Positions 1-61,706 of a DNA stretch of 64,000 bases are shown piece after piece. Origin of the DNA: Omnitrophica WOR_2 bacterium GWF2_43_52 (GTDB lineage Bacteria > Omnitrophota > Gorgyraeia > Gygaellales > UBA12090). Below the pieces are notes generated by a model that ran no database searches, had not been told where the DNA came from, and was given only the letters and a program-made list of their open reading frames with translations. The position numbers were made by a program, and so were the translations under genes. The number at the start of each line of letters is the position of its first letter. Within the stretch, counting starts at the first letter, position 1. The stretch is from NCBI GenBank assembly GCA_001805445.1, contig MHGF01000025.1, positions 338 through 64,337 on the forward strand, given 5' to 3'.

Positions 1-558
1 TTAAAACAGTGCCGATGGACGACAGGGACTTTGCAAAATGGCTCAAATTTTCCTCATTTTGGCGAAAACGCCAAAATTGACTTCTCCGAAGTCAAAGATA
101 AGCTGAAAATTAACCAAGAAAAACAATCAAAACTGACGGACGCTTATCTGGAAAATTTGCTTGGTGAAGATGTCTATCGCGAGAAAAATTCAAGCCTTAG
201 AGATGAAGAAGAATCTTTGAAGAAACTCCTTGCAGGATATGAGCTTAGAGAGATTGAACGAGAACGGTCAGAGGGCTATATAAACAGAGTAAAAGAGTTT
301 CTTGATGGCTATGATGATAGCAAAGAAAAGATAGACTTTGCTACTAAAAAAAAACTTGCCGGGCTGCTTTTTAAAAACATCAAAATCGCCTCATGCCTTG
401 GCGGCCGTTTGCCCCAAAAAAGAATTTCATTTTCTCTTTTTGCCCCCTTTAATTTTTTGTTTTTAGAAACCGAAAGAAAATCGCAATGTCAAAAGAATCA
501 AAAGCTTATAAAAATTTGCCAAAAAAAGTCTACATCCGTACCTTCGGATGTCAGATGA
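1..558 (+). CDS. 3' part of a larger gene that enters the window from upstream. The C-terminal coiled-coil region resembles large serine recombinases. The true stop is uncertain because the reading frame stays open into the miaB start.
   Basis: Frame 1 is open from position 1 with no start codon in the window. The translation '...LTDAYLENLLGEDVYREK...FATKKKLAGLLFKNIKI' matches the pattern of the serine-recombinase C-terminal coiled-coil and final beta-strand. Confidence 0.35.
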   Translation, partial: LKQCRWTTGTLQNGSNFPHFGENAKIDFSEVKDKLKINQEKQSKLTDAYLENLLGEDVYREKNSSLRDEEESLKKLLAGYELREIERERSEGYINRVKEFLDGYDDSKEKIDFATKKKLAGLLFKNIKIASCLGGRLPQKRISFSLFAPFNFLFLETERKSQCQKNQKLIKICQKKSTSVPSDVR

Positions 559-1736
559 ACCTCAGGGATTCTGAAGTAATTGCGGGGCTGCTTTTGGAGG
601 GGGGATTTGGGGTGACGGAAGAAGAGGAAAAGGCTGACGCGGTTTTGTTTGTGACTTGTTCTGTGAGGCAGCATGCTGAGGATAAGGTTTGGTCGGAGAT
701 TGGGCGGTTTTCTAAAATGGTGCCTAAGCCGGTTATCGGGCTGGTTGGTTGTATGGCAGAAAACTATAAAGACAAAGCTTTTAAACGGATGCAGGGGATT
801 GATGTGGTGGTGGGGACGAATAATATCGGGGAAATTCCATATTTATTAAAAGAGGTGTTTGCTCATCAGCTCATTAGCTCATTAGCTCATCAGCCTTTTT
901 TAGCGGTAAGTAAAAAAGAGCGCGATGAGGTTGTGTATGAGTCTATGTTTCGTCAGGAAAAAGACAGTAGCTTTGTGGTGATTTCAGAGGGATGTGATAA
1001 TTTCTGCTCTTACTGTGTAGTGCCGTATGTGCGGGGAAGGCTAAGACATCGGAATTATAAGAATATTATCGCGGAGATAGAGCAAAATATAAAACAGGGA
1101 ATTGAGCGCGTTACTTTGCTTGGCCAGAACGTGAATGCGTATCAGTTCAAATCTGTCAGTCAATATCAGGAAATACGGATATTACCCCCTCCCTTGCCCT
1201 CCCCACATCAGGGGAGGGCATATCGTTCGCGGTCAATAGTTAATTTTATGCAATTATTAAAGCTGGTTAATGATATAGACGGTTTACGAGAATTCAGTTT
1301 TGTTACCTCTCATCCGAAAGACGCCTCAGTTGAGCTTTTTGAGGCTATGGCTAAGTTAGATAAGCTCAAAAAATATTTACACTTGCCATTTCAGTCAGGT
1401 TCGAATAGAATATTAGAGTTGATGAAACGCGGCTATACCAGAGAGCGCTATCTTCAATTAGCAGGAGAATATCGTAAGATAGTGCCCCAAGGTGAGCTTA
1501 CCACAGATATTATCGTGGGTTTTCCGAGCGAGACGGAAGAGGATTTTAAAGAGACCCTTGAACTCGTGCAAAAGGTAAGATTTAACGGCGCCTATATCTT
1601 TAAATACTCGCCCCGCCCGCATGCTAAGGCGGGCGAATTACCTGACGATGTGCCAAAGATAGAGAAAGAACGAAGGCATAGGATTTTATTAGAAACCCAA
1701 AAAAAGATTTCTAAGGAGTTAAAAGCTAAACAGTGA
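486..1736 (+). CDS. miaB: tRNA-i6A37 methylthiotransferase, a radical-SAM enzyme of the MiaB/RimO family
   Basis: An N-terminal MTTase domain with 'FGCQMN' and a radical-SAM 'CDNFCSYCVVP' motif. It sits next to miaA. It contains two in-frame repeat insertions, described in the findings. Confidence 0.8.
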   Translation: MSKESKAYKNLPKKVYIRTFGCQMNLRDSEVIAGLLLEGGFGVTEEEEKADAVLFVTCSVRQHAEDKVWSEIGRFSKMVPKPVIGLVGCMAENYKDKAFKRMQGIDVVVGTNNIGEIPYLLKEVFAHQLISSLAHQPFLAVSKKERDEVVYESMFRQEKDSSFVVISEGCDNFCSYCVVPYVRGRLRHRNYKNIIAEIEQNIKQGIERVTLLGQNVNAYQFKSVSQYQEIRILPPPLPSPHQGRAYRSRSIVNFMQLLKLVNDIDGLREFSFVTSHPKDASVELFEAMAKLDKLKKYLHLPFQSGSNRILELMKRGYTRERYLQLAGEYRKIVPQGELTTDIIVGFPSETEEDFKETLELVQKVRFNGAYIFKYSPRPHAKAGELPDDVPKIEKERRHRILLETQKKISKELKAKQ

Positions 1737-2488
1737 AACAAAAAATATTTTTGACTTTTCTACTTTCTACTTTCTACTTGCTACTCTCTACTCTCTACTG
1801 CTATGCCGAAGGCTTACACAGAGCTGAGGCTCTTTACTTGCAAGGCAGCTATAGCGAAAGCATTGAAGAATGCGCGGAAAGCATTTCCCGCGGGAAGGAT
1901 ATGGATAGGGCATACTATCTTTTGGGGCTTAATTACCTTAAGCTGGGTGATACTCAAAAGGCGCGTGAGAAACTGAAAATCATGATAGAAAATTATAAAG
2001 AGAGTAACTATAGCGCTATTGTCCAAGTGCTCTATGCAGACAGCTATTTTATAGACCAGGAATACGCGACCGCGCAAAGCCGTTATGAGGAAATTCTAAG
2101 GACTAATACGGCACTAGCTAACAGCGCTTATTTAGGCTTGGCCCGCTGTGCTTTGAAAACTGGGGAGTGGGAAAAGGCAAAAGGCTATGCCGAGTTGTTA
2201 GCGCAGAAATTTCCTAAGAGTTTAGAGGCACGTATGGCTAAGGAACTTTTTAGCGGGCAGGAATTTTTCTTTACAGTGCAGGTGGGAAGTTTTGCAAGCC
2301 TTAAAAATGCCGAACGCCTAATGAGTAAATTGCAGGGAAAATACTTTGACGCATTTATTGACCAAGTTCCTTCAGGACAAAATCTCCTCTACCGTGTACG
2401 GGTTGGAAAAGTAAAAACTCGCCAGGAAGCGTTGGCGCTTAAGAATGCGTTGGAAGCAGAAGGGTATCCTACCAGAATTTTCCCTTAG
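1733..2488 (+). CDS. TPR-repeat plus SPOR-domain envelope protein (septal peptidoglycan binding)
   Basis: A signal peptide or N-terminal transmembrane segment, TPR-like helices, and a C-terminal SPOR domain ('FFTVQVGSFASLKNAE...YRVRVG'). Confidence 0.65.
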   Translation: MKQKIFLTFLLSTFYLLLSTLYCYAEGLHRAEALYLQGSYSESIEECAESISRGKDMDRAYYLLGLNYLKLGDTQKAREKLKIMIENYKESNYSAIVQVLYADSYFIDQEYATAQSRYEEILRTNTALANSAYLGLARCALKTGEWEKAKGYAELLAQKFPKSLEARMAKELFSGQEFFFTVQVGSFASLKNAERLMSKLQGKYFDAFIDQVPSGQNLLYRVRVGKVKTRQEALALKNALEAEGYPTRIFP

Positions 2489-2491
2489 TTT

Positions 2492-3448
2492 ATGGCAAAG
2501 CCGGAATTACGCCCCGTAAAACAAAAGCCACAAATTATTTTTTTAGTCGGCCCTACCGCTATCGGTAAAAGCGCTCTTGCCATATCATTAGCCAAAAAAA
2601 TCAGCGCTGAAATCATATCTCTTGATTCCATGCAGATTTATAAAGGCTTAAGGATTGTAAGCTCTCAACCTGACATGGCGATGCAAAAGAGTATTCCTCA
2701 CCATTTACTGGGCTTTGTTTCTCCAGGAGATAAGTTTGATGTTGCCACATACAGAAAATTAGCACTGCAAAAAATAAGGCAGGTCCATAAAAGAAAAAAA
2801 ATCCCCTTGTTTGTAGGCGGGACCGGCCTTTACATGAGTGTGCTTATTGATGGAATCTTTGAGGAAGTAAAGAAGGATGAAGCCTTGCGTAAAAAGCTCT
2901 ACCAACAAGAAAAAAAACGAGGAAGCGGATTTTTGTATAATAAATTACTGGCGGTGGATAGAGAGGCTGCTGCCAAGATTCATCCTCATGATACGCGTAG
3001 GATTGTTAGGGCCTTAGAAGTCTATACGCTCACCGGAAAACCTATTTCAGAATTATGGCGTAAGAGAAAAGGCTTAAGTGAAAAATATGAGGTAAGGATA
3101 TTCGGGCTCAATAAAGACAGGCAGGAGCTCTATAATGATATTAATGCGCGTGTGGAAACAATGTTTAAGGAGGGGTTAGTCGCAGAAGTAAGGAAAGCAG
3201 GTAAGAAAAAGATAAGCCTTACCTGTAGCCAGGCAATCGGCCTTAAGGAAGTGCGGGGCTATTTAGAGGGAGGCTATGATTTAGCTTTCGCTAAAGAGTT
3301 GATGAAGAAAAATACCCGCAATTATGCCAAAAGGCAGTTGACGTGGTTTAGGAAAGATACGCGGATTCTTTGGTTAGATGTAACAAAGGTAAGGATTGAA
3401 GATGCGATTATCAATGAGTTAGTCTATGCTGAAAACACTTTTTCATAA
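2492..3448 (+). CDS. miaA: tRNA dimethylallyltransferase
   Basis: P-loop 'GPTAIGKS' and MiaA conservation throughout. Confidence 0.85.
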   Translation: MAKPELRPVKQKPQIIFLVGPTAIGKSALAISLAKKISAEIISLDSMQIYKGLRIVSSQPDMAMQKSIPHHLLGFVSPGDKFDVATYRKLALQKIRQVHKRKKIPLFVGGTGLYMSVLIDGIFEEVKKDEALRKKLYQQEKKRGSGFLYNKLLAVDREAAAKIHPHDTRRIVRALEVYTLTGKPISELWRKRKGLSEKYEVRIFGLNKDRQELYNDINARVETMFKEGLVAEVRKAGKKKISLTCSQAIGLKEVRGYLEGGYDLAFAKELMKKNTRNYAKRQLTWFRKDTRILWLDVTKVRIEDAIINELVYAENTFS

Positions 3449-5270
3449 TAAATTTTTTGCAATAATCAGCATATGCCTTTTAGGTAGTCTTATTTACTCT
3501 AACACATTCTCTTGTTCATTTCATCTTGATGATAATCGCTGCATTGCGCGTAATCCTAATATACAAGATATCGCGAATTTAGGAGCTATTTTTGATTTTT
3601 GGCCTACGCGCTTTATAGCTTTTTTTTCGATAGCGCTTAATTATCATCTCAACCAAGTTCATCTTTTCGGCTGGCACTTATTTAATCTTATTGTACACTT
3701 GGCTACAGCGGTTTTGGCCTGGTGGTTTATCCGTTTAACATTTTCTACCCCTGCAATGAGAGGTAAAGCGATTGCTGTTTATGCTGTTCCTTGCGCTTTA
3801 TTCTCCGGGTTGATTTTTGTCGCGCATCCTATTCAGACACAGAGCGTAACGTACATTATTCAAAGGATTACTTCTCTGTCGGCCCTTTTTTATTTAGCTT
3901 CCTTATGCCTGTATAGTAAGTCGAGATTGTTGACGGACAGTTCGCAAAACAGGAAAACTACAACATGGTGTTATGTTGCTTCAGTCTTTCTATCTGTCAT
4001 AGCAATGTTTACAAAAGAGTCGACCATAACGCTGCCTTTTATGATTGTAATGTATGAGGTGTTTTTCTTTGATAAAAAAGACGTTAGCTATAGAAGCGTT
4101 GTACCATTTTTGCTTTGTTTAGCAGTAATTCCTTTAACAATGTTTTTTACTCACTCTGTAGATTTCTTGGAAATGAGAAGGGTTCAGGAAGGAGGTAGCC
4201 TTTTATCTTCGAGCACTTATTTTTTGACCCAACTTAGAGTTGTTTTTACCTATCTGAGGCTTCTTTTCTTTCCTGTAGGACAGAATCTCGATTATGATTA
4301 TTCTCCTTCCAAGACTTTGCTGGGGGATTTTCCTGCCTTGCTGAGTTTTCTGTCTTTGCTTTTGATTTTATTTTTTGCTCTAAAGGCTTTTCGCAGGCAT
4401 AAGTTAATTGCTTTTAGTATTTTCTTCTTTTTTCTTGCTCTTGCGCCGGAATCAAGCGTTATCCCTATTAAGGATGTGATTTTTGAGCATCGATTATACC
4501 TTGCGATGGTTGGATATATTCTTTTTATAGTCAGCAGCACATATTCATTGTTTGGTAAAAAATACTCTAAACTCATCGCAGTGTTTCTTTCACTTCTTGT
4601 TTGTGTTTATTCAATCATGTCATATGCCAGAAATGTTGTTTGGAAGGATGAATTTAGTTTGTGGGATGATGTGGTAAAAAAATCTCCTCGAAAAGCCAGG
4701 GCATACCTTTGCCGTGGCAACGCTTATGTAAGCAAGGGTAAAATAGATAAAGCCATCGTTGATTATACTACGGCAATAGCAATTCACTCGCAGTATGCGC
4801 AAGCCTATTCTAGCAGAGGATTTGCTTATCATATCCAAGGGAATTTTAGAGAGGCTGTTTTAGATTATGATCAAGCGATAAAAATTAAGCCGGATTTTGC
4901 GCAAGCGTATAATGATAGAGGCGCCATCTATCAAAGCTTAGGGGATTTGGATAGGTCAATTTCAGATTATAGTGCGGCTATAGACAGTAACCCATATTAT
5001 TATGAAGCTTATAATAACCGGGGAGTAATTTATCAAACAAGGAATAGTTTAGAACAAGCTATTGTAAATTATAGTAAGGCAATAGAAATCAACCCTCATT
5101 ATGGCACGGCTTACAGAAATCGGGCCACTGCCTATTTTTTATATGGAGAATATGATAAATGCTTTAGGGATATTGCTAAGTCAGAAAGTTTAGGGATAAA
5201 GTTTGATCCGGAGGCTTTAAAAATTATGCGGGGAGTTTTTGAAAGAAATGACTCTGCTGGCGGTGGGTAG
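3426..5270 (+). CDS. Polytopic membrane protein with a C-terminal TPR array. It is likely a GT-C-fold glycosyltransferase of the PMT/DUF2723 type.
   Basis: About 10 predicted transmembrane helices with an 'FHLDD' loop motif, followed by at least 6 TPR repeats ('AYxxRGxAY'). Confidence 0.5.
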   Translation: MLKTLFHNKFFAIISICLLGSLIYSNTFSCSFHLDDNRCIARNPNIQDIANLGAIFDFWPTRFIAFFSIALNYHLNQVHLFGWHLFNLIVHLATAVLAWWFIRLTFSTPAMRGKAIAVYAVPCALFSGLIFVAHPIQTQSVTYIIQRITSLSALFYLASLCLYSKSRLLTDSSQNRKTTTWCYVASVFLSVIAMFTKESTITLPFMIVMYEVFFFDKKDVSYRSVVPFLLCLAVIPLTMFFTHSVDFLEMRRVQEGGSLLSSSTYFLTQLRVVFTYLRLLFFPVGQNLDYDYSPSKTLLGDFPALLSFLSLLLILFFALKAFRRHKLIAFSIFFFFLALAPESSVIPIKDVIFEHRLYLAMVGYILFIVSSTYSLFGKKYSKLIAVFLSLLVCVYSIMSYARNVVWKDEFSLWDDVVKKSPRKARAYLCRGNAYVSKGKIDKAIVDYTTAIAIHSQYAQAYSSRGFAYHIQGNFREAVLDYDQAIKIKPDFAQAYNDRGAIYQSLGDLDRSISDYSAAIDSNPYYYEAYNNRGVIYQTRNSLEQAIVNYSKAIEINPHYGTAYRNRATAYFLYGEYDKCFRDIAKSESLGIKFDPEALKIMRGVFERNDSAGGG

Positions 5271-5291
5271 CGTGAGGTTAAGGAGAGCAAA

Positions 5292-6563
5292 ATGATTGAG
5301 TTGTTTGAGAAAGAAAAGGCTTTGCTGGTTACTGTTGATGTATTTTCTTTACGATCCCAGGGCATGAAGATTGAGGATGAAAAACAAGAGTTAAGGGAAT
5401 TGGTAAAAACTGCTGGTTTAGAGATAGTTGATGAAGTTATATGCCATTACGATAAACCGTCGCCTAGTTTGTTTATCGGCTCAGGCAAGGCCGCGGAACT
5501 AAACCTGGTAGCAGCTCAACTGCGGATTGATGTGGTAGTTTTCTCTGTTGATCTGTCCGGAACCCAAGCCAGAAATTTGGAGGAAAAGTTAGGCTGTAAA
5601 GTCATTGACAGGACCCAGTTGATTTTAGACATATTTGCCCTGCATGCCAAAAGCCCCGAAGGAAAGATGCAGGTGGAACTTGCCCAGTTGGAGTATTTAT
5701 TGCCGCGCTTAACCGGGAAAGGGACAATGCTCTCGCGTTTAGGGGGAGGCATCGGTACCCGGGGCCCGGGTGAACAGAAATTAGAGCTTGACCGCAGGCG
5801 TATCCGCAGCCGAATTACCAGGCTGAAGGGGGATTTGGAAAAGGTTCATTCCCATCGCGAGTTGATTCGTAAAAAGCGCAAGGAAGACGATGTCCCTTTG
5901 GTTTCTTTTGTAGGTTATACCAACGCGGGAAAGACTACTCTTCTTAATTCTCTGGTAAACGAGCATCAGTTAGCCGATGACAGTTTGTTTACCACCCTTG
6001 ATCCATTGTCGCGGACACTGGTTCTGCCTAATCATCAAAAAGTTGTGATTTCCGATACGGTTGGTTTTTTGCATAACCTGCCGCATCACCTTATTGAGGC
6101 GTTTAAGGCTACGTTAGAAGACGTAAGAGAGGCGGATTTATTGATTCATGTCTTAGACATTGCTCATCCACTGCGCTATAGCTATTATCAGTCGGTGAAT
6201 ACGGTGCTTCAGGAATTGAATTGCCAGGATAAACCTACTATCACTGTATTGAATAAAGTTGATAAGTTAGAGGATGCAAGTTGGCTTGAACGCTACAAAA
6301 TCGATTTTCCTAATTCAGTAGCCCTCTCCGCGTTAAAAAAAGAGAATCTTGATGGCTTCTTAGCCTTGATATCACAAAAGGTGTCTAACGTCTTTGAAAA
6401 GGTAGAATTAAGCATACCCTTAGATAAAATGAGCTTAGTGGATTTAATTTATCGGGAAGGCAAGGTTGAAAAGGTGCGCTATACCAGTAAGTCAGTGATC
6501 GTATCTGCCTTTCTTCCTGCTACTGTTACCAATAAGCTTTCTTCCTACGTGAATAGGAAATAA
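5292..6563 (+). CDS. hflX: GTPase HflX
   Basis: HflX N-terminal domain plus G-domain motifs ('GYTNAGKTTLLN', 'DTVGF', 'NKVD'). Confidence 0.85.
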   Translation: MIELFEKEKALLVTVDVFSLRSQGMKIEDEKQELRELVKTAGLEIVDEVICHYDKPSPSLFIGSGKAAELNLVAAQLRIDVVVFSVDLSGTQARNLEEKLGCKVIDRTQLILDIFALHAKSPEGKMQVELAQLEYLLPRLTGKGTMLSRLGGGIGTRGPGEQKLELDRRRIRSRITRLKGDLEKVHSHRELIRKKRKEDDVPLVSFVGYTNAGKTTLLNSLVNEHQLADDSLFTTLDPLSRTLVLPNHQKVVISDTVGFLHNLPHHLIEAFKATLEDVREADLLIHVLDIAHPLRYSYYQSVNTVLQELNCQDKPTITVLNKVDKLEDASWLERYKIDFPNSVALSALKKENLDGFLALISQKVSNVFEKVELSIPLDKMSLVDLIYREGKVEKVRYTSKSVIVSAFLPATVTNKLSSYVNRK

Positions 6564-6684: not shown

Positions 6685-9600
6685 ATGAAATCACATTTGC
6701 TGCATAAAACTATTTCCCTATGGGTATCTTTTTGCCTCATTTTTACCCAATTCGCATTTGCCCAAGGGGTAGCCGAACTTAATGTATCAGAGTACTTTAG
6801 GCAAATACATACTAATGTACCTTTTGGTGATAAGCTGAGGCCGCCTCAGCTTAGGTATTTCTCTTATGATACTGTCACAGATGATTATAGGATTATTTTA
6901 GATAAGGGGGCAATAAAAGAGATATCAGAAACCGACGCGGCAGAAAAAGCGAAAACACTTTTAAGTTACTTTCTGATAGGGGTAACCCTCCCCAATGATA
7001 CATTCTGGGTCAACCTGAGGCCCGATGCTCCGGATACTATCATAGACTTTGAATTAGAGAAAACCGATATCGGGAGGATTCTTCTGGAAGCCGACCTGCA
7101 ACTCAAGAAAGATACGGCTCAATGCACCTCACCTCAAACGCCAGATGGTAAGCTCTATTGGGATAAGCTCTATCAGAAGGCAGGTGAGCTCTTTGGCTCT
7201 GAGAATATTACCATTCCTACCTTAACCCGTCCGTGGATAGTACCAGGGGAGATAATCGTAAGAGAAACAGATAATTCCGCCTACATTTACAAGGCAAGCC
7301 TCAAGGTATTGTTAGAAGAAGATTACCTCAAAAGCTCTCAGCTTTCAGCTGTCAGCGTTCAGCAGTATAATTTTAAAGACGAACGGCTAAAAGAGTTGAA
7401 TGAATACTCCACACAGCTTATCAGAGAACTTATTATTCCAAAGCTGACCAGAGAGGTTAATACTTCCCAAAGGTATGCCGCCTTGCGGCAGGTATTCTTT
7501 TCATTAGTGCTTTCTCGATGGTTTAAGGAAAGATTCCGGGGAAAGCAGGGCGCCTATGCGAAGCTAATTGACAGTAAGAATTTAACTAACCTTATTTCGC
7601 AAGAGCAGTGGTCAAAAAATACCTATTTTAATGAATATAAGGAATCATTTCAGCATGGCGAATATAATATAAAGGAAGGTGTAGCCACTCCTTATGGGCA
7701 AACGATACGGAGTTATGTGAGCGGAGGAATTGAATTGACAGGCGCAGCCAGCCCTTTAAATAGTAATAGCTTTAGGGCTGGAGAGGGCCAAAAAATTACT
7801 AACACAATGCTTACTCTGGCAGGAAATGGAAAAAATCCAAGCCTGCAATTTCCTGCGGTCACATCTTCGCCTTTAGGAAAGCCTGAAGAATATAACAATA
7901 AAACAAACAATATAATTAAAGAGATACGTGATGAGGCTTATAAGGTTCACAGTGGCCTCAAAACTATAATAGAAGCATTAAGGCTTAAAATTACTACAGA
8001 GGATAAAGCACATCAAGACATTGAAGCGGCATTGGATAATCTATCAAGTTGGCCGGGTATCTTGCCTGAAAGTACCGATATTAAGGCTATGGCTAAGGAA
8101 ATAGCGAAAGCATTAAGAATATTGAATAAATATTATCTTAGAGATTTAAAAGGGATACTTGAAAAAAGTGGTTTTGAGGAGCAGTTCTCTGCCATGATAC
8201 TGCGTATGGAAAAAATTATTCCCTTAAAAGAGCAGATTCCCGAAGCGCTTGATAACTTTATGGTTAAGTATAAAAGTAGTATTAACCAAGAGCAATTCCA
8301 AAAAGTAGAAGAACTGCGCCTCAAGGAAAGGCAAGAGTTAGAGAATAAGTACGATGATTTTATCCGTTTATGCGCGTATATGGAGGACCTTGTATCGCAG
8401 CTACGAGAACATGCACAGGAACCTGCGAAAGATTCGCTTTATTTTGATTTGGATGAGTGGCTTTCTTTGGAGTTTAGGGCGCAAATAGAAATGATTGAAA
8501 TAGTGGCTGTGGAAGCTGTGAAGGAAATCCATGGTAAGTTTCAGGAAAAAGTAAATGGAATGGAGCGGCAAAGGGAGGAGTTGGAAAATGATATTAAAAA
8601 TATTCACGACAAAATGAGCGCGGGTGTTTTAGAGCTTATTAATAGGTATAACGATTTAGCGCTGCCTTCATTTATGCCAGCGGGTGATGCCGCCGTTGTA
8701 AGCGAAGATGCGTTCAGCCTATTATTTTTAGAAAACAAAGATTTCAACCACTTGACGCAATTTCAATTTCTTTTGCTTTTTGCAAGTTATGCCTTGGGAA
8801 ATTACGAAATTACAAGGGATAAGAATATACAAAAAGCGTTTAAGGAGAAATCTTTTGCTGAAGGGTTAATTACATTATATAAGAGCGTTTATGATCTAGA
8901 TGAAAGGACAAAGAGCTTTGCTAAAGAGCCTTATACTCCAAATTATAATAAAGCTCTTAATCGTATTCTTATTGAAATGCAGAAAAGAAGTGAAAACTTA
9001 GAGAATAAAATCAGCGGTAATTTGGAATATGCCGTTACTAATGATATGCCTTTTGTGAGATTGCCATTTAGCTTAAGACAAGATAAAGATAATGATTTTA
9101 TAAGGAGCAATCTGCCTGAAGCGATAAGCAGGCTTGATAATTATTCCAAAGAGCTTGTAGCAGGATATGGTAAGTCAAGAGATAACAGTATGAGAAATCA
9201 TTTATTTTTATTAAACGTAATAGCTGTCAGCGCGAAGGTTGAGATGGAGTTGTTGATGAGTGAGATTAACGGCAATGCTGAAGCTGCGTCTCCCTTGAGG
9301 CAAGAGAATCAGGAGCAAGATGAGTTAGAAAGGATTAAGAAAGAGTTTCTTCCGCCTCTTGGCGCAGGCAGGCTTACTTTTAAAGATGCAGCAAATAAAA
9401 TTGTTCATGAAATTAGCCAAGTCATAATGGAAAAGATCAATTCTACTGATGAGAACGCAGCATCAAAATTATATAGGGAGAAGCCGTCACCTTACAGTAG
9501 CCTCAAAACGTACCTAGAGGCTTTAGGCTTTACTATTAATGAAAAAGTGGACATGCAGAAGCTGCAAAACGAGATAGAAGCTCTTATCGGGGTAATAAAG

Positions 9601-11433: not shown

Positions 11434-11562
11434 GATTAGAGAAGAATTTTTTACGTTTACCGTTCACCGCTTACCGTGTACCGTTATAATCGTACATACT
11501 CTACGGTAAACGGTTCGCGGTTAACGGTACACGAAACGTGATTCTTCAAGAAGGATAGGTAA

Positions 11563-17575: not shown

Positions 17576-18736
17576 ATGATGAGTACTAAACGCGACTATT
17601 ACGAAATACTCAATGTAAGCAAGGCCGCTCCTTTGGATGAGATAAAGAAGGCATACAGAACTCTTGCCATGAAGTATCATCCTGACCGTGTCCCTCCTGA
17701 GCAAAAAAAAGAGGCGGAGGAAAAGTTTAAGGAGATATCTGAGGCCTACGCGGTTCTATCCGATACCCAGAAAAGATCGCTCTACGATCAATACGGCCAT
17801 TCGGGGATTGACCAGAAATATGCCTATGAAGATATCTTTAAGGGCGCTGATTTTGGCAGCATTTTTGGTGACGCGAAAGGGTTTGGCGGAGGTATCTTTG
17901 ACGAAATTTTCAGCGATTTAGGCTTTGATATATTTGGAGGCGGAGCCCGAAAGCAGGGGACACGTTCGCGCAGGGGAAGAGATATCCAGATTGAGGTGGA
18001 TATTACTTTAGAAGAAGCTTATGCGGGGTTGGAAAAGACTATTAATGTTCCCCGCTATGAAATTTGCTCAACCTGCCAGGGACAGGGGGCGAAACCGGGT
18101 TCGAAAAAGACTGCCTGCAGCCAGTGTAAGGGCGCGGGGCAGGTAATTATGTCCAGCGGCTTCTTTCAGATACGTCAGACCTGTCCGAAGTGCCGCGGCG
18201 AAGGCTCTTTTGTAGGCCAGCCCTGTACTTCTTGCCAGGGGCAGGGCAGGATAAAAATTACCCGTAAGATAGAGGTTAAAATTCCCGCGGGCATTGATAC
18301 GGGCTCATCGCTGCGGGTGCGCGGTGAAGGTGAAGCCGGAACACAGGGGCATGGGGATCTCTATGTTTTGATTAATGTCCTGCCGCATAATAACTTTGAA
18401 CGCCATAATAATGATATTGTAACTGAAAGCAGGATACCTCTTTCGACTGCTCTTTTGGGCGGGGAAGTTGAAGTTTTGACTTTAGAGGGGAAAGTGAAAA
18501 TGAAAATCCCTTCGGGCACTCAGCCGGGAAAGATATTTCGGCTCAAGGAAAAAGGCATGCCGGATGTGCATAGCTATGACCGGGGAGATCAGCTTGTGCG
18601 GATGAATGTTGAGATTCCTAATGATTTAACAGCGCAGCAGAGAAAGCTTATAGAAGAGTTTGCCGCGCTGCGCGGGGAAGAGGTAGATGCGGGAAAAGAG
18701 TCTTTTACGGACAAAGTAAAGAAAGTGTTTAGATAA
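17576..18736 (+). CDS. dnaJ: Hsp40 co-chaperone DnaJ
   Basis: J-domain 'HPD', a G/F region, and four CxxCxGxG zinc repeats. Confidence 0.9.
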
Positions 18737-18912
18737 AGAAGAGAACAGAAGACAGAGTACAGAAAACAGAAATTAGTAGAAATATACAGCAAAGCGAGGA
18801 AATTGATTGAGCTCATTGTTGGTAGAATTTCCACGAATTTCAATAAATTTCTGCATATTTCTGTAATCTGTTCTCTGTTATCTGTTATCTAACCGAACGA
18901 AGTGAGGTTATA

Positions 18913-19562: not shown

Positions 19563-20863
19563 GCGCGTTTTGCGGTTTGCGATATAACCCCACGCTCGTT
19601 AAAAAAATAGAAAAAGTAGTATGCCCGCCCTATGACGTTATTTCCCCGGAGCAGCAGAATAAACTCCATGCATCAAGCCGCGATAATTTTATCCGTCTCA
19701 TTTTAGGTAAGGCAAAGCAAAGTGATACCTCCAGGCATAATAAATATACCCGCGCGGGAGATTTCTTAAAGGAGGCTATCAGAAAAAAAGTATTCGTTTG
19801 CGACAGCCTGCCAGCTATCTATCTCTATGAACAGGAGTACAGGGTAGCCGCTCAGGGCTATAAGCGCCTTGGTTTTATTGCCCTTCTTCGGCTTGAGCCG
19901 ACAGGAAAAGGGGTAGTGTTTCCTCACGAGAAGACTTTTTGTAAGCCCAAACAGGACAGGCTTTCCCTGCTTAAGGCGACGCAGGCAAATCTCTGCCCTA
20001 TCTTTGGGCTCTATGATGCCGATGATGCCGCTGTCGACGCGCGCCTCAGAAAGCATGCCAAGGCAAAACCGCTCTATGATTTTTTCTTTGAGGGAATAAG
20101 AAATAAACTTTGGAAAATAGAAGACCGGGAATTTATCCGCGGGCTTACGCAAGCGATGGCCGATAAACAGATTTTTATCGCTGACGGCCATCATCGCTAT
20201 GAAGTAGCCAGCCTTTATCATAGGCTAGCGCGCAAGCGTACCGTGGCGCGCTCGCGGAGTGATTATGTGATGATGTATTTTTGTAACCTCAGGAACCAAG
20301 GCCTCAGAGTGTTGCCAACGCATAGGGTAGTACGTAATGTCAGCCAGGAAATTATTTCTCAACTACCGGCATTGTTAGAAAACTATTTCAAGCTAAGCCC
20401 TTGCGCGAATTTACCCGAGCTTCTTCTCCAGCTTAAAAAAAGGGCAGGCCGGCGCGCCTTCGGACTTTTTTTAGGAGCAAACCGGTTTTACCTGCTTGAT
20501 GTTAGGGCTACTCCGGCAAAAAAGAAACCCGTGGTTTCCCAAGGAGATTATTGCTATAATAACTTAGATGTTGTTTTGCTGCATAGTTTAGTTTTTAGCA
20601 AACTACTGAAACTAAAAAAGCAGCATCATCACGATGCGGATATTGTGTATGCCCGGGATGAAAAGCAAGCCGTTAGTTTAGTAAAAAGCAAAAAATACCA
20701 GGCAGCATTTTTTATGAATCCGCCAAGCCCTCGGGAAATCAGCTCTATCGCGCGCTGCTTTAAAAAGATGCCGCATAAGTCAACGTATTTTTATCCTAAG
20801 CCGGTTTCAGGGCTGGTGATAAACATGCTCAAGAAAGAGCTGCCAGTAGAGAGTAGAGAGTAG
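19550..20863 (+). CDS. DUF1015-family protein
   Basis: N-terminal 'FCGLRYNP...PPYDVIS' is characteristic of DUF1015. Confidence 0.6.
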   Translation: MAEISAFCGLRYNPTLVKKIEKVVCPPYDVISPEQQNKLHASSRDNFIRLILGKAKQSDTSRHNKYTRAGDFLKEAIRKKVFVCDSLPAIYLYEQEYRVAAQGYKRLGFIALLRLEPTGKGVVFPHEKTFCKPKQDRLSLLKATQANLCPIFGLYDADDAAVDARLRKHAKAKPLYDFFFEGIRNKLWKIEDREFIRGLTQAMADKQIFIADGHHRYEVASLYHRLARKRTVARSRSDYVMMYFCNLRNQGLRVLPTHRVVRNVSQEIISQLPALLENYFKLSPCANLPELLLQLKKRAGRRAFGLFLGANRFYLLDVRATPAKKKPVVSQGDYCYNNLDVVLLHSLVFSKLLKLKKQHHHDADIVYARDEKQAVSLVKSKKYQAAFFMNPPSPREISSIARCFKKMPHKSTYFYPKPVSGLVINMLKKELPVESRE

Positions 20864-20915
20864 AAAGTAGAAAGTAGAAAGTAGTAACTAAATTACTTAC
20901 TACTCTCTACTATTT
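20845..20915. terminator. Hairpin built from AGTAGAR heptamer tandem repeats and their inverted copy, between the DUF1015 gene and accD
   Basis: 'agtagagagtagagagtagaaagtagaaagtagaaagtag' ... 'cttactactctctactattt'. Confidence 0.45.
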
Positions 20916-20938
20916 ACTCCCGAAGGTAGTGAGGGAAG

Positions 20939-28711: not shown

Positions 28712-28932
28712 TTATTGCCGGGAAACCTTATTTTCAGTGTTTAAAATTGATTTTTCCAGTGTAAACTAATGCATTGTTACATAAGTCCTTTGATAGATAT
28801 GATGGTAAAAATGGGTCCTGTCCAGGTTATGTTTTCGCCCCGCCTACGGCGGGGCTCAAACACAACCCGGCCACCAATTTTTACAGCTATTTTAAGAAAC
28901 TTATGTAACAATGTACTAATCAAGGAAAGAAA

Positions 28933-34523: not shown

Positions 34524-34982
34524 ATCCTTGAGAAAATATTCATAGCATCTCTTTAGCATCGATGTAATTCTTCCCGCATGTTAGAGAGTGTCTTTGTACT
34601 CACACGCTCTCTTATCGTAAAGATTCCCGCAATAAAAGATAACCCAGAATAGTTTTATTATTACACTGTGATAAGAAATTTGGGTCACTGTGTAGTAGTG
34701 CTCCGTGACATAAATTCTTACTATCTGCAACACTTCACTTGCCAGCGGGGGTGGCAAGGTTGTGTTTGAGCCCCGCCGTAGGCGGGGCGAAAACATAACC
34801 TTGACAGGACCTCCGCCCTATATTCAAACATGATAGCGCAATGCCAAAATCTAATGTCACAGCGCAGCAGGATAATAGAGGTAATTTCATGATAATGTAA
34901 AAATATGTCATGATATGTAAATATTCTTCTTGACAATTGTGCTAACTATTATAAAATGTAACCTATGGTGTCAGAGGCTCTT

Positions 34983-47037: not shown

Positions 47038-47637
47038 ATGAGAAAACAAAGAAAAGCAAAAGTTGAGAGAAGAACAACAGAAACCACTATTGGCCTCGCG
47101 ATTAACTTAGATGGCAGGGGGAAATCGAAAATTAAAACGCCGATAGGTTTTTTGAGCCATATGCTTACCCTTTTTGCTAGACACGGATTATTTGACCTTG
47201 AGCTAAAGGCTACTGGGGATACAGAGGTGGATCTTCATCATACGAATGAAGATATTGGGATATGCCTAGGCCAGGCGCTCCAAAAGGCGCTCAAGGATAA
47301 GGCAGGTATCAGAAGGTTTGGTTTTGCCTCGGTGCCTATGGATGAGGCGCTTGTAGAACTAAGCCTGGATATCAGCGGAAGGCCTTATTTAGCGTTTATC
47401 GTTAACCGTTTACCGTTTACCGCTACTGGGAAAGAATACAGTATGAATTATTTAAAGCAGTTCCTGCAGGCACTGGTGAATACCTCGGGGATAACCATGC
47501 ATGTGGAAATCCTCTATGGGGAAGATTTGCATCACTGTATTGAAGCGGTGTTTAAGGCTTTAGGAAGAGCTTTACGGGAGGCGGTAAGTATCGATAGCCG
47601 TATTCAAGGAATTTTATCTACAAAAGGAAGATTGTAG
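47038..47637 (+). CDS. hisB: Imidazoleglycerol-phosphate dehydratase
   Basis: IGPD motifs ('HHTNED'). Confidence 0.85.
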   Translation: MRKQRKAKVERRTTETTIGLAINLDGRGKSKIKTPIGFLSHMLTLFARHGLFDLELKATGDTEVDLHHTNEDIGICLGQALQKALKDKAGIRRFGFASVPMDEALVELSLDISGRPYLAFIVNRLPFTATGKEYSMNYLKQFLQALVNTSGITMHVEILYGEDLHHCIEAVFKALGRALREAVSIDSRIQGILSTKGRL

Positions 47638-47659: not shown

Positions 47660-47815
47660 CAAAATAACCAAACACCAATTTCCAATAACCAAATAATAAC
47701 CAATGTGCCAATGACCAAACTATTTGTTTATTGGGTATTGTCACGCAAAGCTGGTTTCTTGTCTCTATGAGATAATGGGCAGGTGAGTTTATTTGGTTAT
47801 TGGTGATTTATGCTC
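47660..47815. repeat. MITE-like long imperfect hairpin repeat (copy 1 of the 'AACCAAACACCAATTTCCAATAACCAAA' family)
   Basis: A 35-bp block nearly identical to 52822-52860. The arms CCAATAACCAAATAA and TTATTTGGTTATTGG pair. Confidence 0.6.
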
Positions 47816-47885: not shown

Positions 47886-48560
47886 ATGATTTCAGTTATC
47901 GACTATGGTATGGGAAATTTGCGCAGTGTGGCAAAGGCGTTAGAAGCCGCGGGTGCGGGGGATGTTTTGGTGACTTCAGATATCAAGACAATTGACAAAG
48001 CAGATAAGATCGTCCTCCCCGGTGTTGGCGCGATGCAGGATGCCATGAAAGAGCTTAAGCGGTTGGATTTAATAAAGGTGATTAAAGAAAGTATTCTGAA
48101 AAAACCGTTTCTAGGTATTTGCCTCGGGCTGCAGTTACTTTTTACCGAAAGTGAAGAGGGGCACAAGACGCGAGGGTTGGGGGTATTTAAAGGAAAGGTT
48201 AAACGCTTTAGTTCTGACATGAAAGCCCCGCATATGGGGTGGAATCAAATTGTACGAAGGACGAAGGACGTCCCTTCGACTTGGTTCGACTACGCTCACC
48301 ACAAGTCGCTCAGGGCAGGGGGACGAGAGACGAAAAAAAACATAAATCTGTTAAAAAATATCCCTGATGCTGCGTATTTTTATTTCTGTCATTCATACTA
48401 TGTTGTTCCGGATGATAAAGGCCTGATTGCGACAACTACCGAGTATGGCATTGACTTTGTATCTTCAATTTGTAAGGGTAATCTTTTTGCCTGTCAGTTT
48501 CATCCTGAGAAAAGCCAAAGTGTGGGTTTAAAGCTTTTAGAAAATTTTGTAAGGCTATAG
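47886..48560 (+). CDS. hisH: Imidazole glycerol phosphate synthase glutaminase subunit
   Basis: 'VLPGVGA' and a catalytic Cys 'GICLGLQ'. It contains an in-frame insert of about 30 aa. Confidence 0.85.
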   Translation: MISVIDYGMGNLRSVAKALEAAGAGDVLVTSDIKTIDKADKIVLPGVGAMQDAMKELKRLDLIKVIKESILKKPFLGICLGLQLLFTESEEGHKTRGLGVFKGKVKRFSSDMKAPHMGWNQIVRRTKDVPSTWFDYAHHKSLRAGGRETKKNINLLKNIPDAAYFYFCHSYYVVPDDKGLIATTTEYGIDFVSSICKGNLFACQFHPEKSQSVGLKLLENFVRL

Positions 48561-48642
48561 CTAATACAAAGCGGCCAACGGTAAACGGTTCACGCCTACC
48601 TGCCGGCAGGGTAAACGTAACTTTATTTGAGAGAGCAGTGAA

Positions 48643-50023: not shown

Positions 50024-50845
50024 ATGTTAACCAAAAGGATTATACCCTGCCTTGACGTTAAAGACGGAAGGGTGGTAAAAGGAGTCAAGTTTTTAAATTT
50101 AAAAGACGCGGGTGACCCGGTTATCATTGCCAAACGCTATGAAGAAGAGCAGGCCGATGAACTTGTATTCCTGGATATTACCGCAAGCGCGGAAAACAGA
50201 AATATTATTCTCGATGTGGTCCGGCGCACCGCGGAAAATGTCTTTATGCCGCTTACTGTCGGAGGAGGGATACGCGCTATAGCTGACATCCGCGCGTTGC
50301 TGAATGCCGGCGCGGACAAGGTTTCTATCAATACGGCGGCAGTAAAGAGGCCGGCGCTCATCAAAGAGGCAGCGGATAAATTCGGCAGTCAGTGTATTGT
50401 GGTGGCGATTGACGCTAAAAGGGTCAATAGTCAATGGCCTATGGCCAATGGTCAAACGAAGAAGCTATCGACTATCGACTATCGATTATCGACTAAGAAG
50501 TGGGAAGTGTATATTAACGGAGGCAGAACGCCCACAGGGTTAGATGCTGTAAAATGGGCGAAGAAGGCTGAAGCCTCAGGAGCGGGTGAAATACTTTTGA
50601 CCAGCATGGATGCTGATGGGACAAAAAACGGTTATGACCTTGAGCTGACGAACGCTATAACAACTGCAGTGAATATTCCACTCATCGCATCGGGAGGCGC
50701 GGGGAAAAAAGAGGATTTTTATACTGTATTGACTGAAGCAGGCGCGGATGCCGCGTTAGCCGCATCGCTTTTTCACTATCAGGAGTTACGCATTAAAGAG
50801 GTTAAGAGCTATTTACAGAAAAAAGGAGTATTGGTGCGATGGTAA
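50024..50845 (+). CDS. hisF: Imidazole glycerol phosphate synthase cyclase subunit
   Basis: HisF motifs. It contains an in-frame insert of about 21 aa. Confidence 0.85.
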
Positions 50846-51186: not shown

Positions 51187-51295
51187 TATTATTATTTATG
51201 GATAAGCTCATTGGTTTTTTGATAAACGCAAGCAGCAGCCGGCGAACGGTCAGCGGTAAACGGTACACGTAAAAGAAGTTTTCTAGGTAAATACA

Positions 51296-52821: not shown

Positions 52822-52965
52822 GAAAATAACCAAACACCAATTTCCAATAACCAAACAATACCCAATCACCAATAGCCAAATTTCACGCATGCTGTTTGGT
52901 TATTGATAATAGGGTATTGGGGTTTGTTTGATTATTGTATCTTGATAATTGGTTATTTCGGGCTC
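52822..52965. repeat. MITE-like hairpin repeat (copy 2 of the 'CCAATAACCAAA' family)
   Basis: Shares a 35-bp block with 47662-47697 and has a complementary TGTTTGGTTATTG arm. Confidence 0.6.
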
Positions 52966-52990: not shown

Positions 52991-53236
52991 ATGTCAGTAG
53001 CAATCAGGATGAGGAAAGTCGGTAAAGGTATAAAGAAAAATTTCTATTTTAGGGTTGGGGTCATTGACGAGCAAAAAAGCCGGGATGGCAAAATGCTGGA
53101 AGATATCGGCGTCTATGAGCCTGCCAAAAAAGAAAATAATTTCAGGATTAACAAGGAGCGCTTTGACTACTGGAAATCAAAGGGCGCGGTTATTTCTGAT
53201 ACGGTAAGAAGCCTGGTTAAGAAAAGCAGTAAGTAG
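52991..53236 (+). CDS. rpsP: 30S ribosomal protein S16
   Basis: 'VAIRMRKVGKG...FYFRVGV' and a GAGGAGG RBS. The start was moved to the internal ATG at 52991. Confidence 0.85.
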   Translation: MSVAIRMRKVGKGIKKNFYFRVGVIDEQKSRDGKMLEDIGVYEPAKKENNFRINKERFDYWKSKGAVISDTVRSLVKKSSK

Positions 53237-53294
53237 TAAGTAGAGAGTAGATAGTAGTAAGTAGATAGTAGCAAGTAAAAGAAAGGAAGATCAA

Positions 53295-58870: not shown

Positions 58871-58987
58871 CCCCACCTACCAATTCAACCTCGTAGGTTG
58901 TAGGAAAACGTCGACGGGTAATTCTGACAACCTACGAGGTTGAATTGGTTGACAACCTACGAGGTTGAATTGGTTTTGGAAGATGAG

Positions 58988-59950
58988 ATGAAGATTCGGT
59001 GTGGTATAACGATGGGGGATCCTGCGGGAATAGGCGCGGAAATTATTCTCAAGGCGCTTGTCAGGCCATCAATACGGAAATTAGCGGATTTTGTGGTTAT
59101 CGGAGATCGCCGTATACTCGAGGAAGTATGGAGGATAGAAAATAGGAAGGGGAAGCTGGCGGGCTTTAAGGTAATTGACCTGAAAAATGTGTCCGAGAAA
59201 GGATTCAAGTTCGGTAAGTTACGCTCTGCCAATGGAAAGGTAGCCCTGGAATATCTGGATACGGCTATTGATTTAATCAACCATAAACACATAGATTGTT
59301 TAGTTACCGCTCCGGTGAATAAGGAGGCAATTACTTCCTCTGGATGCCATTTTACCGGACAAACCGAGTATCTGGCGCGGCATTTTAAGATACAAAATGC
59401 GGTCATGATGCTGCTGAATAAAAAATTAAAAGTGGCTTTGGCAACCCGCCATATTCCCTTAAAGGATGTACCTGCCCATATAACGATTGATGGGCTTGTA
59501 AAAGTAATTACAGGATGCGCGCAAGGGCTATATTCTTTTTTCGGTATGAGAAATCCCCGTCTTGCAGTCTGCGGCCTCAATCCGCATGCCTCTGATAACG
59601 GGGTGATAGGTAAGGAAGAAGCGCGGGTGTTGATTCCCGCGATAAAAAAGGCAAGAAGACAGCGTATTTCAGTAAGCGGCCCGTTTGCCGCTGATACTAT
59701 TTTTGAAAAAGCAGTCCAGGGTAAGTATGACTGCGTTGTTTGTATGTATCATGACCAAGGGCTTATTCCGCTCAAGCTTACCGGTTTTAACCAAGCGGTG
59801 AATATTACCTTAGGCCTGCCTTTTGTGCGTACTTCACCGGGCCACGGTACCGCCTATGATATCGCCGGAAAAAATAAAGCTAACCCGGAATCCCTTATCC
59901 AGGCAATAAAAATCGCCCTCCAATGCACCCGAAACCAAAGAAAAGCTTAG
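58988..59950 (+). CDS. pdxA: 4-hydroxythreonine-4-phosphate dehydrogenase
   Basis: PdxA conservation. The start was moved to the ATG at 58988; the ORF track start lies inside the repeat. Confidence 0.8.
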   Translation: MKIRCGITMGDPAGIGAEIILKALVRPSIRKLADFVVIGDRRILEEVWRIENRKGKLAGFKVIDLKNVSEKGFKFGKLRSANGKVALEYLDTAIDLINHKHIDCLVTAPVNKEAITSSGCHFTGQTEYLARHFKIQNAVMMLLNKKLKVALATRHIPLKDVPAHITIDGLVKVITGCAQGLYSFFGMRNPRLAVCGLNPHASDNGVIGKEEARVLIPAIKKARRQRISVSGPFAADTIFEKAVQGKYDCVVCMYHDQGLIPLKLTGFNQAVNITLGLPFVRTSPGHGTAYDIAGKNKANPESLIQAIKIALQCTRNQRKA

Positions 59951-60829: not shown

Positions 60830-60851
60830 TTAACTAAAGATATTGTGACTA

Positions 60852-60930
60852 CTGATAAAGGTAAACCCAGAGTAATCTGGGGGCGCAAAGCAATGGGGTC
60901 CTGATAAAGGATTGCCCGGCTGCCAAAGGG
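60852..60930 (+). ncRNA. Candidate c-di-GMP-I (GEMM) riboswitch aptamer
   Basis: 'AAAGGUAAACC-CAGA-GUAA-UCUGG-GGGCGCAAAGC...GGGGUCCUGAUAAAGG...GCCCGGCUGCC' compared with the Vc2/GEMM core 'GGCAAACC-stem-GNRA-stem-GGACGCAAAGCC...'. Confidence 0.55.
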
Positions 60931-61646: not shown

Positions 61647-61669
61647 AAATAAAAACTTTTTTGGAAAAA

Positions 61670-61706
61670 GACAAATGGCGATGGTATTTCCATCGCCATT
61701 TGTCTT
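61670..61706 (+). terminator. 15-bp stem hairpin after the pilin gene
   Basis: gacaaatggcgatgg tattt ccatcgccatttgtc. Confidence 0.5.

Follow-up and report, generated by a model that had tools for sequence, protein, structure and literature searches.

The 64,000-nt stretch of Omnitrophica WOR_2 bacterium GWF2_43_52 analysed here (contig MHGF01000025.1, positions 338 to 64,337; called the window below) carries an 84-nt in-frame insert in miaB, the gene of a radical-SAM tRNA-modification enzyme. The core of the insert is a G/C-rich three-arm DNA motif whose design, judged from the sequence, is that of two kinds of intergenic repeats, the triplex motifs (TM, also named PIT elements) and the repetitive potential quadruplex sequences (rPQS). 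We favour, with a probability of roughly 0.55, the explanation that the insert is a tolerated in-frame relic of such G/C-rich structure-forming (triplex- or G-quadruplex-type) repeat DNA in a permissive loop of the MiaB protein. It looks like tolerated DNA and not like something the protein makes use of. The insert is restricted to a small clade and probably neutral, and the divergence among its carriers suggests that it was probably moved between lineages by recombination.

To our knowledge, G/C-rich three-arm repeats of the triplex/G-quadruplex (G4) type have been known since 2000, and neither their function nor their mode of spread is established. The present locus offers such a motif inside a conserved gene, close relatives with an empty site, and several alleles that are mosaic in a way that points to recombination around the motif. 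It makes testable the origin and movement of these motifs, their possible role in triggering recombination, and the ease with which a radical-SAM enzyme tolerates translated non-B DNA. If the repeat inserts in MiaB of Omnitrophota prove to be general, they would add a second independent case, next to Rickettsia, in which repeat DNA shapes the loops of proteins; otherwise the insert would be a harmless one-off.

Host gene and position of the insert

The host gene (positions 486 to 1736, plus strand) encodes a protein of 416 aa. Is it a miaB gene, as an earlier reading of this DNA (the sequence-only reading) had named it? The Pfam domains UPF0004 (residues 14-110) and Radical_SAM (residues 164-361), the latter with the CxxxCxxC core, are both present. 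The protein scores 374.1 bits with the curated NCBIfam profile of MiaB, TIGR01574 (cutoff 355.3), and it matches 7MJV, the solved MiaB of Bacteroides uniformis, with an E-value of 2.7e-79, all in agreement with that name. The same reading called the enzyme essential, which goes too far, since model bacteria can do without MiaB. A Candidatus Omnitrophota metagenome-assembled genome (contig DNSN01000005.1, GCA_003499645.1) has an identical protein on deposit, and the window lies close to one end of that contig. No C-terminal RNA-binding TRAM domain was found by Pfam in the window protein, TIGR01574 is matched only at 1-372 of 437, and the next gene already begins at 1733. TRAM is likewise absent from the best 120 homologues, which are of the Omnitrophota type and for all of which only PF00919 and PF04055 are listed; a literature search on TRAM-less MiaB returned nothing relevant. 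The gene order miaB, TPR-SPOR protein, miaA (486-3448 in the window) is conserved, and in one homologue, P0099, a MiaB of 660 aa, a SPOR domain is part of the same protein.

The insert, SVSQYQEIRILPPPLPSPHQGRAYRSRS, comprises 28 codons at positions 1152-1235 of the plus strand (aa 223-250 in the best placement) and does not disrupt the frame. It was delimited by the alignment of homologues that the sequence-only reading had proposed, by the gap against 7MJV and by the predicted local distance difference test (pLDDT) values of a structure model; the boundaries are approximate, within a few codons. Within the radical-SAM domain, it occupies the loop that follows the GQNVNAY strand. Residues 224-251 stand opposite only 5 residues of 7MJV, which agrees with the excess of about 23 residues over canonical MiaB counted before, while the excess over the nearest Omnitrophota MiaBs without the insert is 28 residues. 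An in-frame insertion of structured DNA was thus read correctly: 28 codons with a G/C-rich palindrome, in a genome of 44% G+C, are absent from the next-closest MiaBs. The C-rich strand of the core is the sense strand and is translated as PPPLPSP...GR (PPPLPSPHQGR). An AlphaFold2 model from a 40-sequence alignment is confident for MiaB as a whole (mean pLDDT 82.5), and residues 224-248 fall below 50, between short strands at 220-222 and 251-253. The insert is thus predicted to be a disordered extension at the tip of a short beta-hairpin after the GQNVNAY strand. Insertion in frame, into a conserved protein and where the structure permits it, is also the situation of the Rickettsia palindromic elements (RPE), reportedly described by Ogata and co-workers in 2000, to which the sequence-only reading had likened the insert.

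A three-arm motif in the core of the insert

What is the structure of the inserted DNA? The palindrome with a perfect 9-bp stem that had been noticed, GCCCTCCCC-ACATCA-GGGGAGGGC at 1196-1219, is exact as a sequence, while the full stem is one pair longer. It is a perfect 10-bp hairpin, TGCCCTCCCC-ACATCA-GGGGAGGGCA, at 1195-1220, with the C-rich arm at 1195-1204, the loop at 1205-1210 and the G-rich arm at 1211-1220. A third arm, CCCCCTCCC at 1185-1193 of the plus strand, had not been described, nor had the triplex and rPQS motif class been considered. This arm is a mirror repeat of the C-rich stem arm, with TTG between the two. On the minus strand, a pyrimidine arm comes first, followed by the purine arm that pairs with it and then by another purine arm, the mirror image of the preceding one. 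The result is a perfect 8-triad motif for a purine-motif (class II) intrastrand triplex, CCCTCCCC-TGATGT-GGGGAGGG-CAA-GGGAGGGG, at 1186-1218. In a motif scan, the window has exactly one class II motif of 8 triads, and none was found in 200 shuffles.

The minus strand, which templates miaB transcription, also carries a canonical potential G-quadruplex sequence (PQS), GGGGAGGGCAAGGGAGGGGG, at 1185-1204. It is the only one in the window on either strand, and a count of one per 64 kb is not unusual in itself (shuffle average 0.83). Perfect stems of at least 10 bp number 4 in the window against 0.6 per dinucleotide shuffle, and G/C-rich ones 1 against 0.01 expected. The RNA hairpin at 1195-1220 has an energy of -22.1 kcal/mol. 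Folding of the insert region as DNA and RNA, which had been suggested as a check, returned a stable hairpin, the 111-nt region being more stable than its shuffles with z = -3.2 as DNA and -2.9 as RNA. When quadruplex folding is allowed, the G4 fold is predicted at -26.6 kcal/mol and the hairpin at -23.5 kcal/mol (RNA parameters). Judged from its sequence, the core could fold as a hairpin, as an intrastrand triplex or as a G-quadruplex, and the predicted G4 competes with the hairpin. An intrinsic terminator was considered for the hairpin and rejected, because there is no T-run 3' of it. No Rfam family matches the insert at E-values up to 1.

Relatives, alleles and divergence

Among the best 120 homologues, only the six closest (P0001-P0006, 74-100% identity) carry the insert, with the peptide SVSQ[YD]Q[EK]IRI[LS]PPPLPSP[HQ][QR]GR[AGE]YRSRS. 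In P0007, which is the nearest protein that lacks the insert (about 73% identity in the alignment), and in those beyond it, the loop has only 5-6 residues. Alleles of the insert beyond the window were read as DNA at three loci, L001 (P0006), L002 (P0004) and L172 (P0121), and the empty site was read from the DNA of L170. All three alleles keep the three arms and with them the triplex motif. The 8-bp core stem is unchanged in L001 and L002, and L172 keeps the perfect 10 bp. The outer G-C pair of the window has become A.A in L001 and G.G in L002, and the hairpin loop is ACATCA, ACAACG or ACATCG. As far as these sequences go, the stem is a case of invariance plus decay at the edge, with no compensatory change. 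A relative with the peptide as conserved protein sequence and without the palindrome, which would be the mark of an ordinary lineage-specific loop, was not found among the three alleles, which are too close for an independent test.

Substitution rates were estimated by the Nei-Gojobori method, comparing the window with L001 and L002. For the insert (aa 223-250), synonymous divergence (dS) is 0.15 and 0.00, and nonsynonymous divergence (dN) is 0.12 and 0.07, respectively. The 53 flanking codons are intermediate with dS about 0.5, and the rest of miaB has dS of 1.5-1.8 and dN of about 0.2. The dS of the insert is about 10-fold below that of the rest of the gene. Nonsynonymous to synonymous changes in the insert are 7:3 against L001 and 4:0 against L002, so that omega (dN/dS) is about 1 or higher. 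Because omega is about 1, the insert seems to behave as sequence without selection at the protein level. Two scenarios would give such numbers: the common ancestor of the insert may be about ten times younger than that of the surrounding gene, or all positions of the insert may be constrained alike. Against L002, a low-divergence tract of about 200 nt (1104-1301, aa about 207-272) is centred on the insert. It holds four synonymous changes, and its only amino-acid changes are four replacements, all within the insert.

The third allele gives a more striking pattern, which should be read with care. Over a stretch of 135 nt (1116-1250), the whole insert included, L172 matches the window with 100% identity; downstream of this stretch the sequence is of the L001/L002 type (94% identical to L002, 79% to the window), and the first ~506 nt of its miaB (5001-6128), which precede the GQNVNAY codons, belong to a different, unrelated lineage of MiaB. 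This mosaic gene is either a real recombinant or an assembly chimera. The coverage of L172 is 2.6x, its left half differs in tetranucleotide composition, and the correlation between its halves is r = 0.65, compared with at least 0.79 among pieces of the window. Since the low coverage and the composition break allow a chimeric assembly, L172 was downgraded as proof of recombination and we do not lean on it.

Copy number and occurrence of the motif elsewhere

Is the insert one copy of a repeat family of this lineage? The palindrome does not recur in the window even when 2 mismatches are allowed, and the 9-mer of the arm occurs 16 times against 12.8 expected, no more often than by chance. There is no second triplex motif in the window, in an extra 1 kb of the contig or in the related loci. 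Searching the 84-nt insert by blastn found nothing beyond 9-11-mers in the window or in seven related Omnitrophota loci (L001-L004 and L169-L171, about 80 kb). Therefore a donor repeat family in the lineage is not demonstrated. At the protein level, the 35-aa peptide was searched by phmmer against 1.84 billion representative proteins. It recovered one MiaB cluster and four low-complexity Pro-rich proteins, so in this set the peptide is present in no protein family other than MiaB. An RPE-like element with further palindromes is thus not supported by the DNA of the window and the related loci, nor by the peptide search. The insert had been called selfish or structured DNA, and of these two terms the second stands, as the DNA is structured, evolves like DNA and encodes a disordered loop, while for a multi-copy selfish element a second copy is missing from the DNA covered here.

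A transposase gene is present nearby. At the contig end, about 0.7 kb upstream of miaB and outside the window (L171, 1-826), the gene of a 228-aa protein matches the NCBIfam model NF047646, 'REP-associated tyrosine transposase' (RAYT; REP, repetitive extragenic palindrome), with 81.7 bits (cutoff 80). Perfect inverted repeats of 23 nt, AAATAGTGTCGTTTCTGCGTAAC and GTTACGCAGAAACGACACTATTT, lie on either side of the gene, the outer one exactly at the end of the contig. Both are unlike the insert and have 0 matches in the 64-kb window, and a link between the insert and the RAYT gene was rejected.

The motif class itself is found outside Omnitrophota. A scan of genome contigs for GCCCTCCCC-N6-GGGGAGGGC has no Omnitrophota among the matches listed, which are chance or terminator-like occurrences in G/C-rich genomes. 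The 22-nt hairpin core CCCTCCCCACANCNGGGGAGGG was then used to scan metagenome contigs, and 44 contigs were chosen only for the hairpin. None of them is miaB or has an Omnitrophota context, and most come from G/C-rich organisms. A second C-rich arm lies 2-4 nt upstream of the hairpin in 19 of the 44 contigs, and the perfect 8-triad motif CCCTCCCC-N5-6-GGGGAGGG-N2-5-GGG[AT]GGGG is present in 18. Several contigs (L137, L139, L157, L161) have two copies each, and longer flanks are common to groups of contigs in the fashion of a repeat family. In L136, a contig of 27% G+C, the motif is intergenic and terminator-like, with a T-run followed by a promoter-like TTGACA/TATAAT pair. Rfam has no match in 12 of the metagenome loci bearing the motif.

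Origin of the insert

How could such a motif come to lie inside miaB? In the explanation preferred here, it would have entered once, in the ancestor of the small clade, whether through illegitimate recombination, through template switching or through a mobilisation of unknown kind. Later it may have been exchanged between diverged lineages by homologous recombination, with a tract of about 130-200 nt. Structure-induced breakage at the non-B DNA motif may have favoured these exchanges, as proposed for the TM loci of E. coli. The enzyme would tolerate the insert, which would contribute nothing to catalysis. Note that motifs made of C-runs and G-runs would be easy passengers, giving Pro- or Gly-rich, stop-free peptides in most frames. 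Several points weigh against this explanation. Neither the motif nor the insert turned up a second time in the window, the extra 1 kb and the ~80 kb of related loci. For the ~50 nt of the insert outside its 34-nt core, no source was found. Terminal inverted repeats around the insert are not convincing, with only a weak outer pairing of ACGGATAT and ATATCGT. The sole flanking direct repeat, GTCAATA at 1159 and 1232, brackets 73 nt; since 73 is not a multiple of 3, its excision would not restore the frame, and it was rejected as a target-site duplication. The published TM and rPQS repeats are reported exclusively as intergenic. The low synonymous divergence could instead mean constraint at the nucleotide level, and the mosaic patterns could partly come from strain-chimeric metagenome assemblies, as the coverage and the left half of L172 suggest.

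Could the motif instead be a functional element in cis, a hairpin, G4 or triplex which pauses ribosomes or RNA polymerase midway through the radical-SAM domain, between its two halves, tunes miaB expression or makes a recombination hot spot? The roughly tenfold conservation of its synonymous sites would fit such a role, but the reduced dS reaches into the flanking codons, a better fit to a recombination tract than to local constraint. The three arms are invariant in four alleles and the mRNA hairpin is predicted to be strong (-22 kcal/mol), yet no compensatory change accompanies them and the outer pair is simply broken in two alleles. The G4 lies on the template strand, and TM motifs were linked to local genome rearrangement in E. 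coli, where, on the other side, they have neither promoter nor terminator activity (PMC4666352). What is more, the element is confined to a tiny clade, and most MiaBs of Omnitrophota do without it or have unrelated inserts. We regard a function in cis as unlikely, though it ranks first among the rivals weighed here. A mobile repeat, in which the 84 nt would be one copy of a multi-copy miniature element of the RPE or miniature inverted-repeat transposable element (MITE) type inserting in frame, ranks below it and is improbable too. The in-frame position, the disordered loop and the palindromic core are what such an element would show, the RAYT gene is only 0.7 kb away, the low dS suggests recent spread, and palindromic or tandem-repeat inserts occur at the same loop elsewhere, with one element at two loops in L169. 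Set against this, the insert is single-copy in 64 kb, compared with 44 in-gene RPE copies in ~1.3 Mb of R. conorii (review PMC10969869), and its peptide is MiaB-only among the 1.84 billion representatives. It has neither convincing terminal inverted repeats nor a usable target-site duplication, and the 23-nt repeats of the RAYT gene are unrelated to it and absent from the window.

Two explanations do without any incoming repeat. One is a local origin de novo, by slippage and template switching (quasi-palindrome correction) from a short run of proline codons with no donor. That the insert is single-copy, that its arms are one 8-mer in direct-mirror and inverted orientation within 34 nt, and that the genome is prone to short tandem duplication inside genes (an octamer array at 861-894, and heptamer arrays) would all agree with it. 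Carriers and non-carriers nevertheless differ by the full 84 nt with no intermediate allele, and identical arms and loop geometry recur as a repeat unit in many unrelated bacteria; therefore a shared motif class is favoured over a one-off accident, and we consider a local origin quite unlikely. The least probable of the four is an ordinary Pro/Arg-rich surface loop selected as protein, for example for tRNA contact in a MiaB without TRAM, with an incidental palindrome. The loop after GQNVNAY does vary in length across MiaB and RimO proteins, the peptide has basic residues (RAYRSRS), and all Omnitrophota MiaBs lack the RNA-binding TRAM domain. Codon choice, on the other hand, would not be expected to make both a perfect hairpin and a perfect mirror arm (0/200 shuffles), most of the changes within the insert are nonsynonymous, the model predicts disorder for the loop, and the next-closest MiaBs do without it.

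Other repeats in Omnitrophota miaB genes and in the window

Other Omnitrophota MiaBs have different inserts at the same loop, and these are repeat-built where the DNA was read. Because of this, the loop after GQNVNAY is, as it appears from these sequences, a permissive landing site for repetitive or palindromic DNA in Omnitrophota. In L003 (gene 2001-3449) and L004 (gene 321-1571), the loop holds four copies of a NNCCGGTT-like octamer (TACCGGTT/AGCCGGTT/CGCCGGTT), followed by an imperfect palindrome, ATTGCTTCTCCGCC-TGC-GGCGGATCGCAAT, which forms an ATTGC...GCAAT hairpin. The octamer unit resembles the TTTACCG arrays of the window. In L169, the same loop has AGGGACAGTCCCC-AAAAACC-GGGGACAGTCCCT, a double palindrome of the form GGGACAGTCCCC-N3-7-GGGGACAGTCCC that is read as RDSPQK[AP]GTVP or GQSPSGTVP. 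It is present at two MiaB loops in L169 (10230-10270 and 10686-10726). Nearly the same element lies at the second of these loops in L001 (358-395), L002 (292-330) and L004 (534). No further double palindrome of the GGGACAGTCCCC type was found in the 21 kb of L169 or in the window.

The miaB gene of the window has another repeat at 861-894, where 4.2 copies of the octamer GCTCATCA/GCTCATTA encode AHQLISSLAHQ in frame. This array lies at the linker between the UPF0004 and radical-SAM domains. P0007 has AHQLIRSSAHQ there, and other relatives have different repeat-like peptides, such as TKDEGRRTKDEG from the heptamer ACGAAGG, which is also found at 48254-48270 of the window. Across the 64 kb, there are about 17 short tandem arrays with a period of 7 nt. 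A few unit families (AGTAGAR, TTTACCG, AATAACC) come back in both orientations, both in intergenic DNA and inside open reading frames (ORFs). The arrays include those at 1757-1799, 20845-20918, 53223-53281, 11450-11528, 47388-47422, 48570-48594, 51245-51273, 47663-47692, 52825-52879, 50432-50495, 18736-18890 and 7333-7363. In the TPR-SPOR protein, the hydrophobic core of the signal peptide is encoded by the array at 1757-1799. The heptamer arrays resemble the short tandemly repeated repetitive (STRR) heptamers of cyanobacteria; a literature search on repeats in Omnitrophota, heptamer arrays included, found nothing relevant.

Is there a general process behind these inserts? It is conceivable that permissive loops of Omnitrophota housekeeping proteins are systematically colonised by several unrelated classes of structure-forming DNA, which would spread between diverged lineages via short recombination tracts seeded at non-B DNA. 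The classes would be the triplex/G4 three-arm motifs, the GGGACAGTCCCC double palindromes and the 7-8-nt tandem arrays, translated as disordered Pro-, Gly- or Arg-rich loops. This phylum-wide scenario is tentative, and we would rather bet against it, while giving it more credit than any of the rivals above. If true, it would be a multi-family counterpart of the RPE phenomenon in Rickettsia, and the present motif would be the first of the TM/PIT type caught inside a reading frame with an empty-site comparator.

Neighbouring elements in the window

An ORF at 31-558, overlapping the start of miaB at 486, matches a large serine recombinase over its whole length (E = 1e-5); the alignment covers the last 150 aa of the recombinase, and the two share a terminal PSD[VA]R. 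In L170 (5313-10004) and in the contig of P0007, an integrated element adjoins the miaB start, with a primase-helicase, a helix-turn-helix protein and a serine recombinase. Over its first 25 residues, the window MiaB is identical to P0002 and also to P0034, a distant homologue (57% identity). Because the element abuts the miaB start and these residues are identical in so distant a homologue, the sequences suggest that the integrated element supplies the 5' end of miaB.

Farther into the window, 62-nt inverted repeats (28814-28875 and 34750-34811, 95% complementary) surround a 5.9-kb block of six genes. Each of them holds a hairpin, GCCCCGCC-TAC-GGCGGGGC, and neither a tRNA nor an Rfam family matches the repeats. 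At 58879-58975, a 25-nt unit, TGACAACCTACGAGGTTGAATTGGT, is present twice in tandem with an inverted copy 15 nt upstream, an operator-like layout just before, and overlapping, the start of the ORF at 58940-59950. A c-di-GMP-I riboswitch aptamer (RF01051, 55.3 bits) is located at 60850-60927, upstream of the ORF at 61164-61646, and a perfect 17-bp hairpin, AAGACAAATGGCGATGG-TATTT-CCATCGCCATTTGTCTT, follows that ORF at 61668-61706.

Comparison with known systems

Which known system is closest to the insert? REPs are short G/C-rich imperfect palindromes, extragenic and numerous. The RAYT gene upstream of miaB is the point of likeness to them, while the inverted repeats AAATAGTGTCGTTTCTGCGTAAC around that gene bear no resemblance to the insert and are absent from the window. 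With the RPE, the insert has in common that palindromic DNA lies in frame within the gene of a housekeeping enzyme, at a position compatible with the fold. The RPE are about 100-150 bp long and form defined multi-copy families, whereas the insert has 84 nt and a single copy; the RPE peptide is conserved across many unrelated proteins, whereas the insert peptide is found only in MiaB.

The triplex motif of E. coli, TM_ECO, is CCCTCNCCC N3-6 GGGNGAGGG N3 GGGNGAGGG, with 3610 occurrences in 262 proteobacterial genomes and 23 in MG1655 (Holder et al. 2015, PMC4666352). TM motifs, formerly named PIT elements or BoxC, showed neither promoter nor terminator activity when examined in E. coli; for TM_ECO the same study gives a location that is "always" intergenic, no tie to mobile elements already known, and an association with regions of local rearrangement (PMC4666352). 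The window motif has the same block order and loop sizes: a pyrimidine stem, a loop of 3-6 nt, a purine stem, a loop of 3 nt and a mirror purine stem. Its dimensions are 8 / 6 / 8 / 3 / 8-9, within the limits for an intrastrand triplex (stems of at least 8 nt, loops of 1-6 nt). It is likewise G/C-rich in a genome that is not G/C-rich, and there are signs of local recombination or rearrangement. Its arms, CCCTCCCC/GGGGAGGG, are of 8 nt and those of TM_ECO, CCCTCNCCC/GGGNGAGGG, of 9 nt, so that the loop lengths fit and the stem consensus does not. Unlike TM_ECO with its 23 copies in MG1655, the window motif is single-copy in 64 kb plus 1 kb and is translated in frame within miaB, in a host of another phylum.

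The rPQS of Methanomicrobiaceae consist of a repetitive PQS with an adjacent C3TC3 tract, are multi-copy and all intergenic, and interconvert in vitro between hairpin, triplex and G4; the C-tract is 5' of the PQS in the bacterial arrangement and 3' in the archaeal one (Chashchina et al. 2021, PMC8044849). The likeness is again close. In the window motif, the four G-runs are joined by loops of 1, 3 and 1 nt, one A separates two of the runs, and the C3TC3-type tract is complementary to two G-runs, which gives competing hairpin, triplex and G4 folds. The test oligonucleotide GGGGGGTGGGGG-CA-GGGGAGGGGG-CTCG-CCCCCTCCCC is of nearly the same design. On the minus strand, the PQS GGGGAGGGCAAGGGAGGGGG has the C-tract CCCTCCCC 6 nt off on its 5' side, which is the bacterial arrangement. 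It differs from the rPQS in lying within coding sequence and in being a single copy, compared with at least 4 per genome. Failing the consensus, the copy number and the intergenic location of these families, the insert is not a member of either, yet its architecture is of the TM/PIT or rPQS type.

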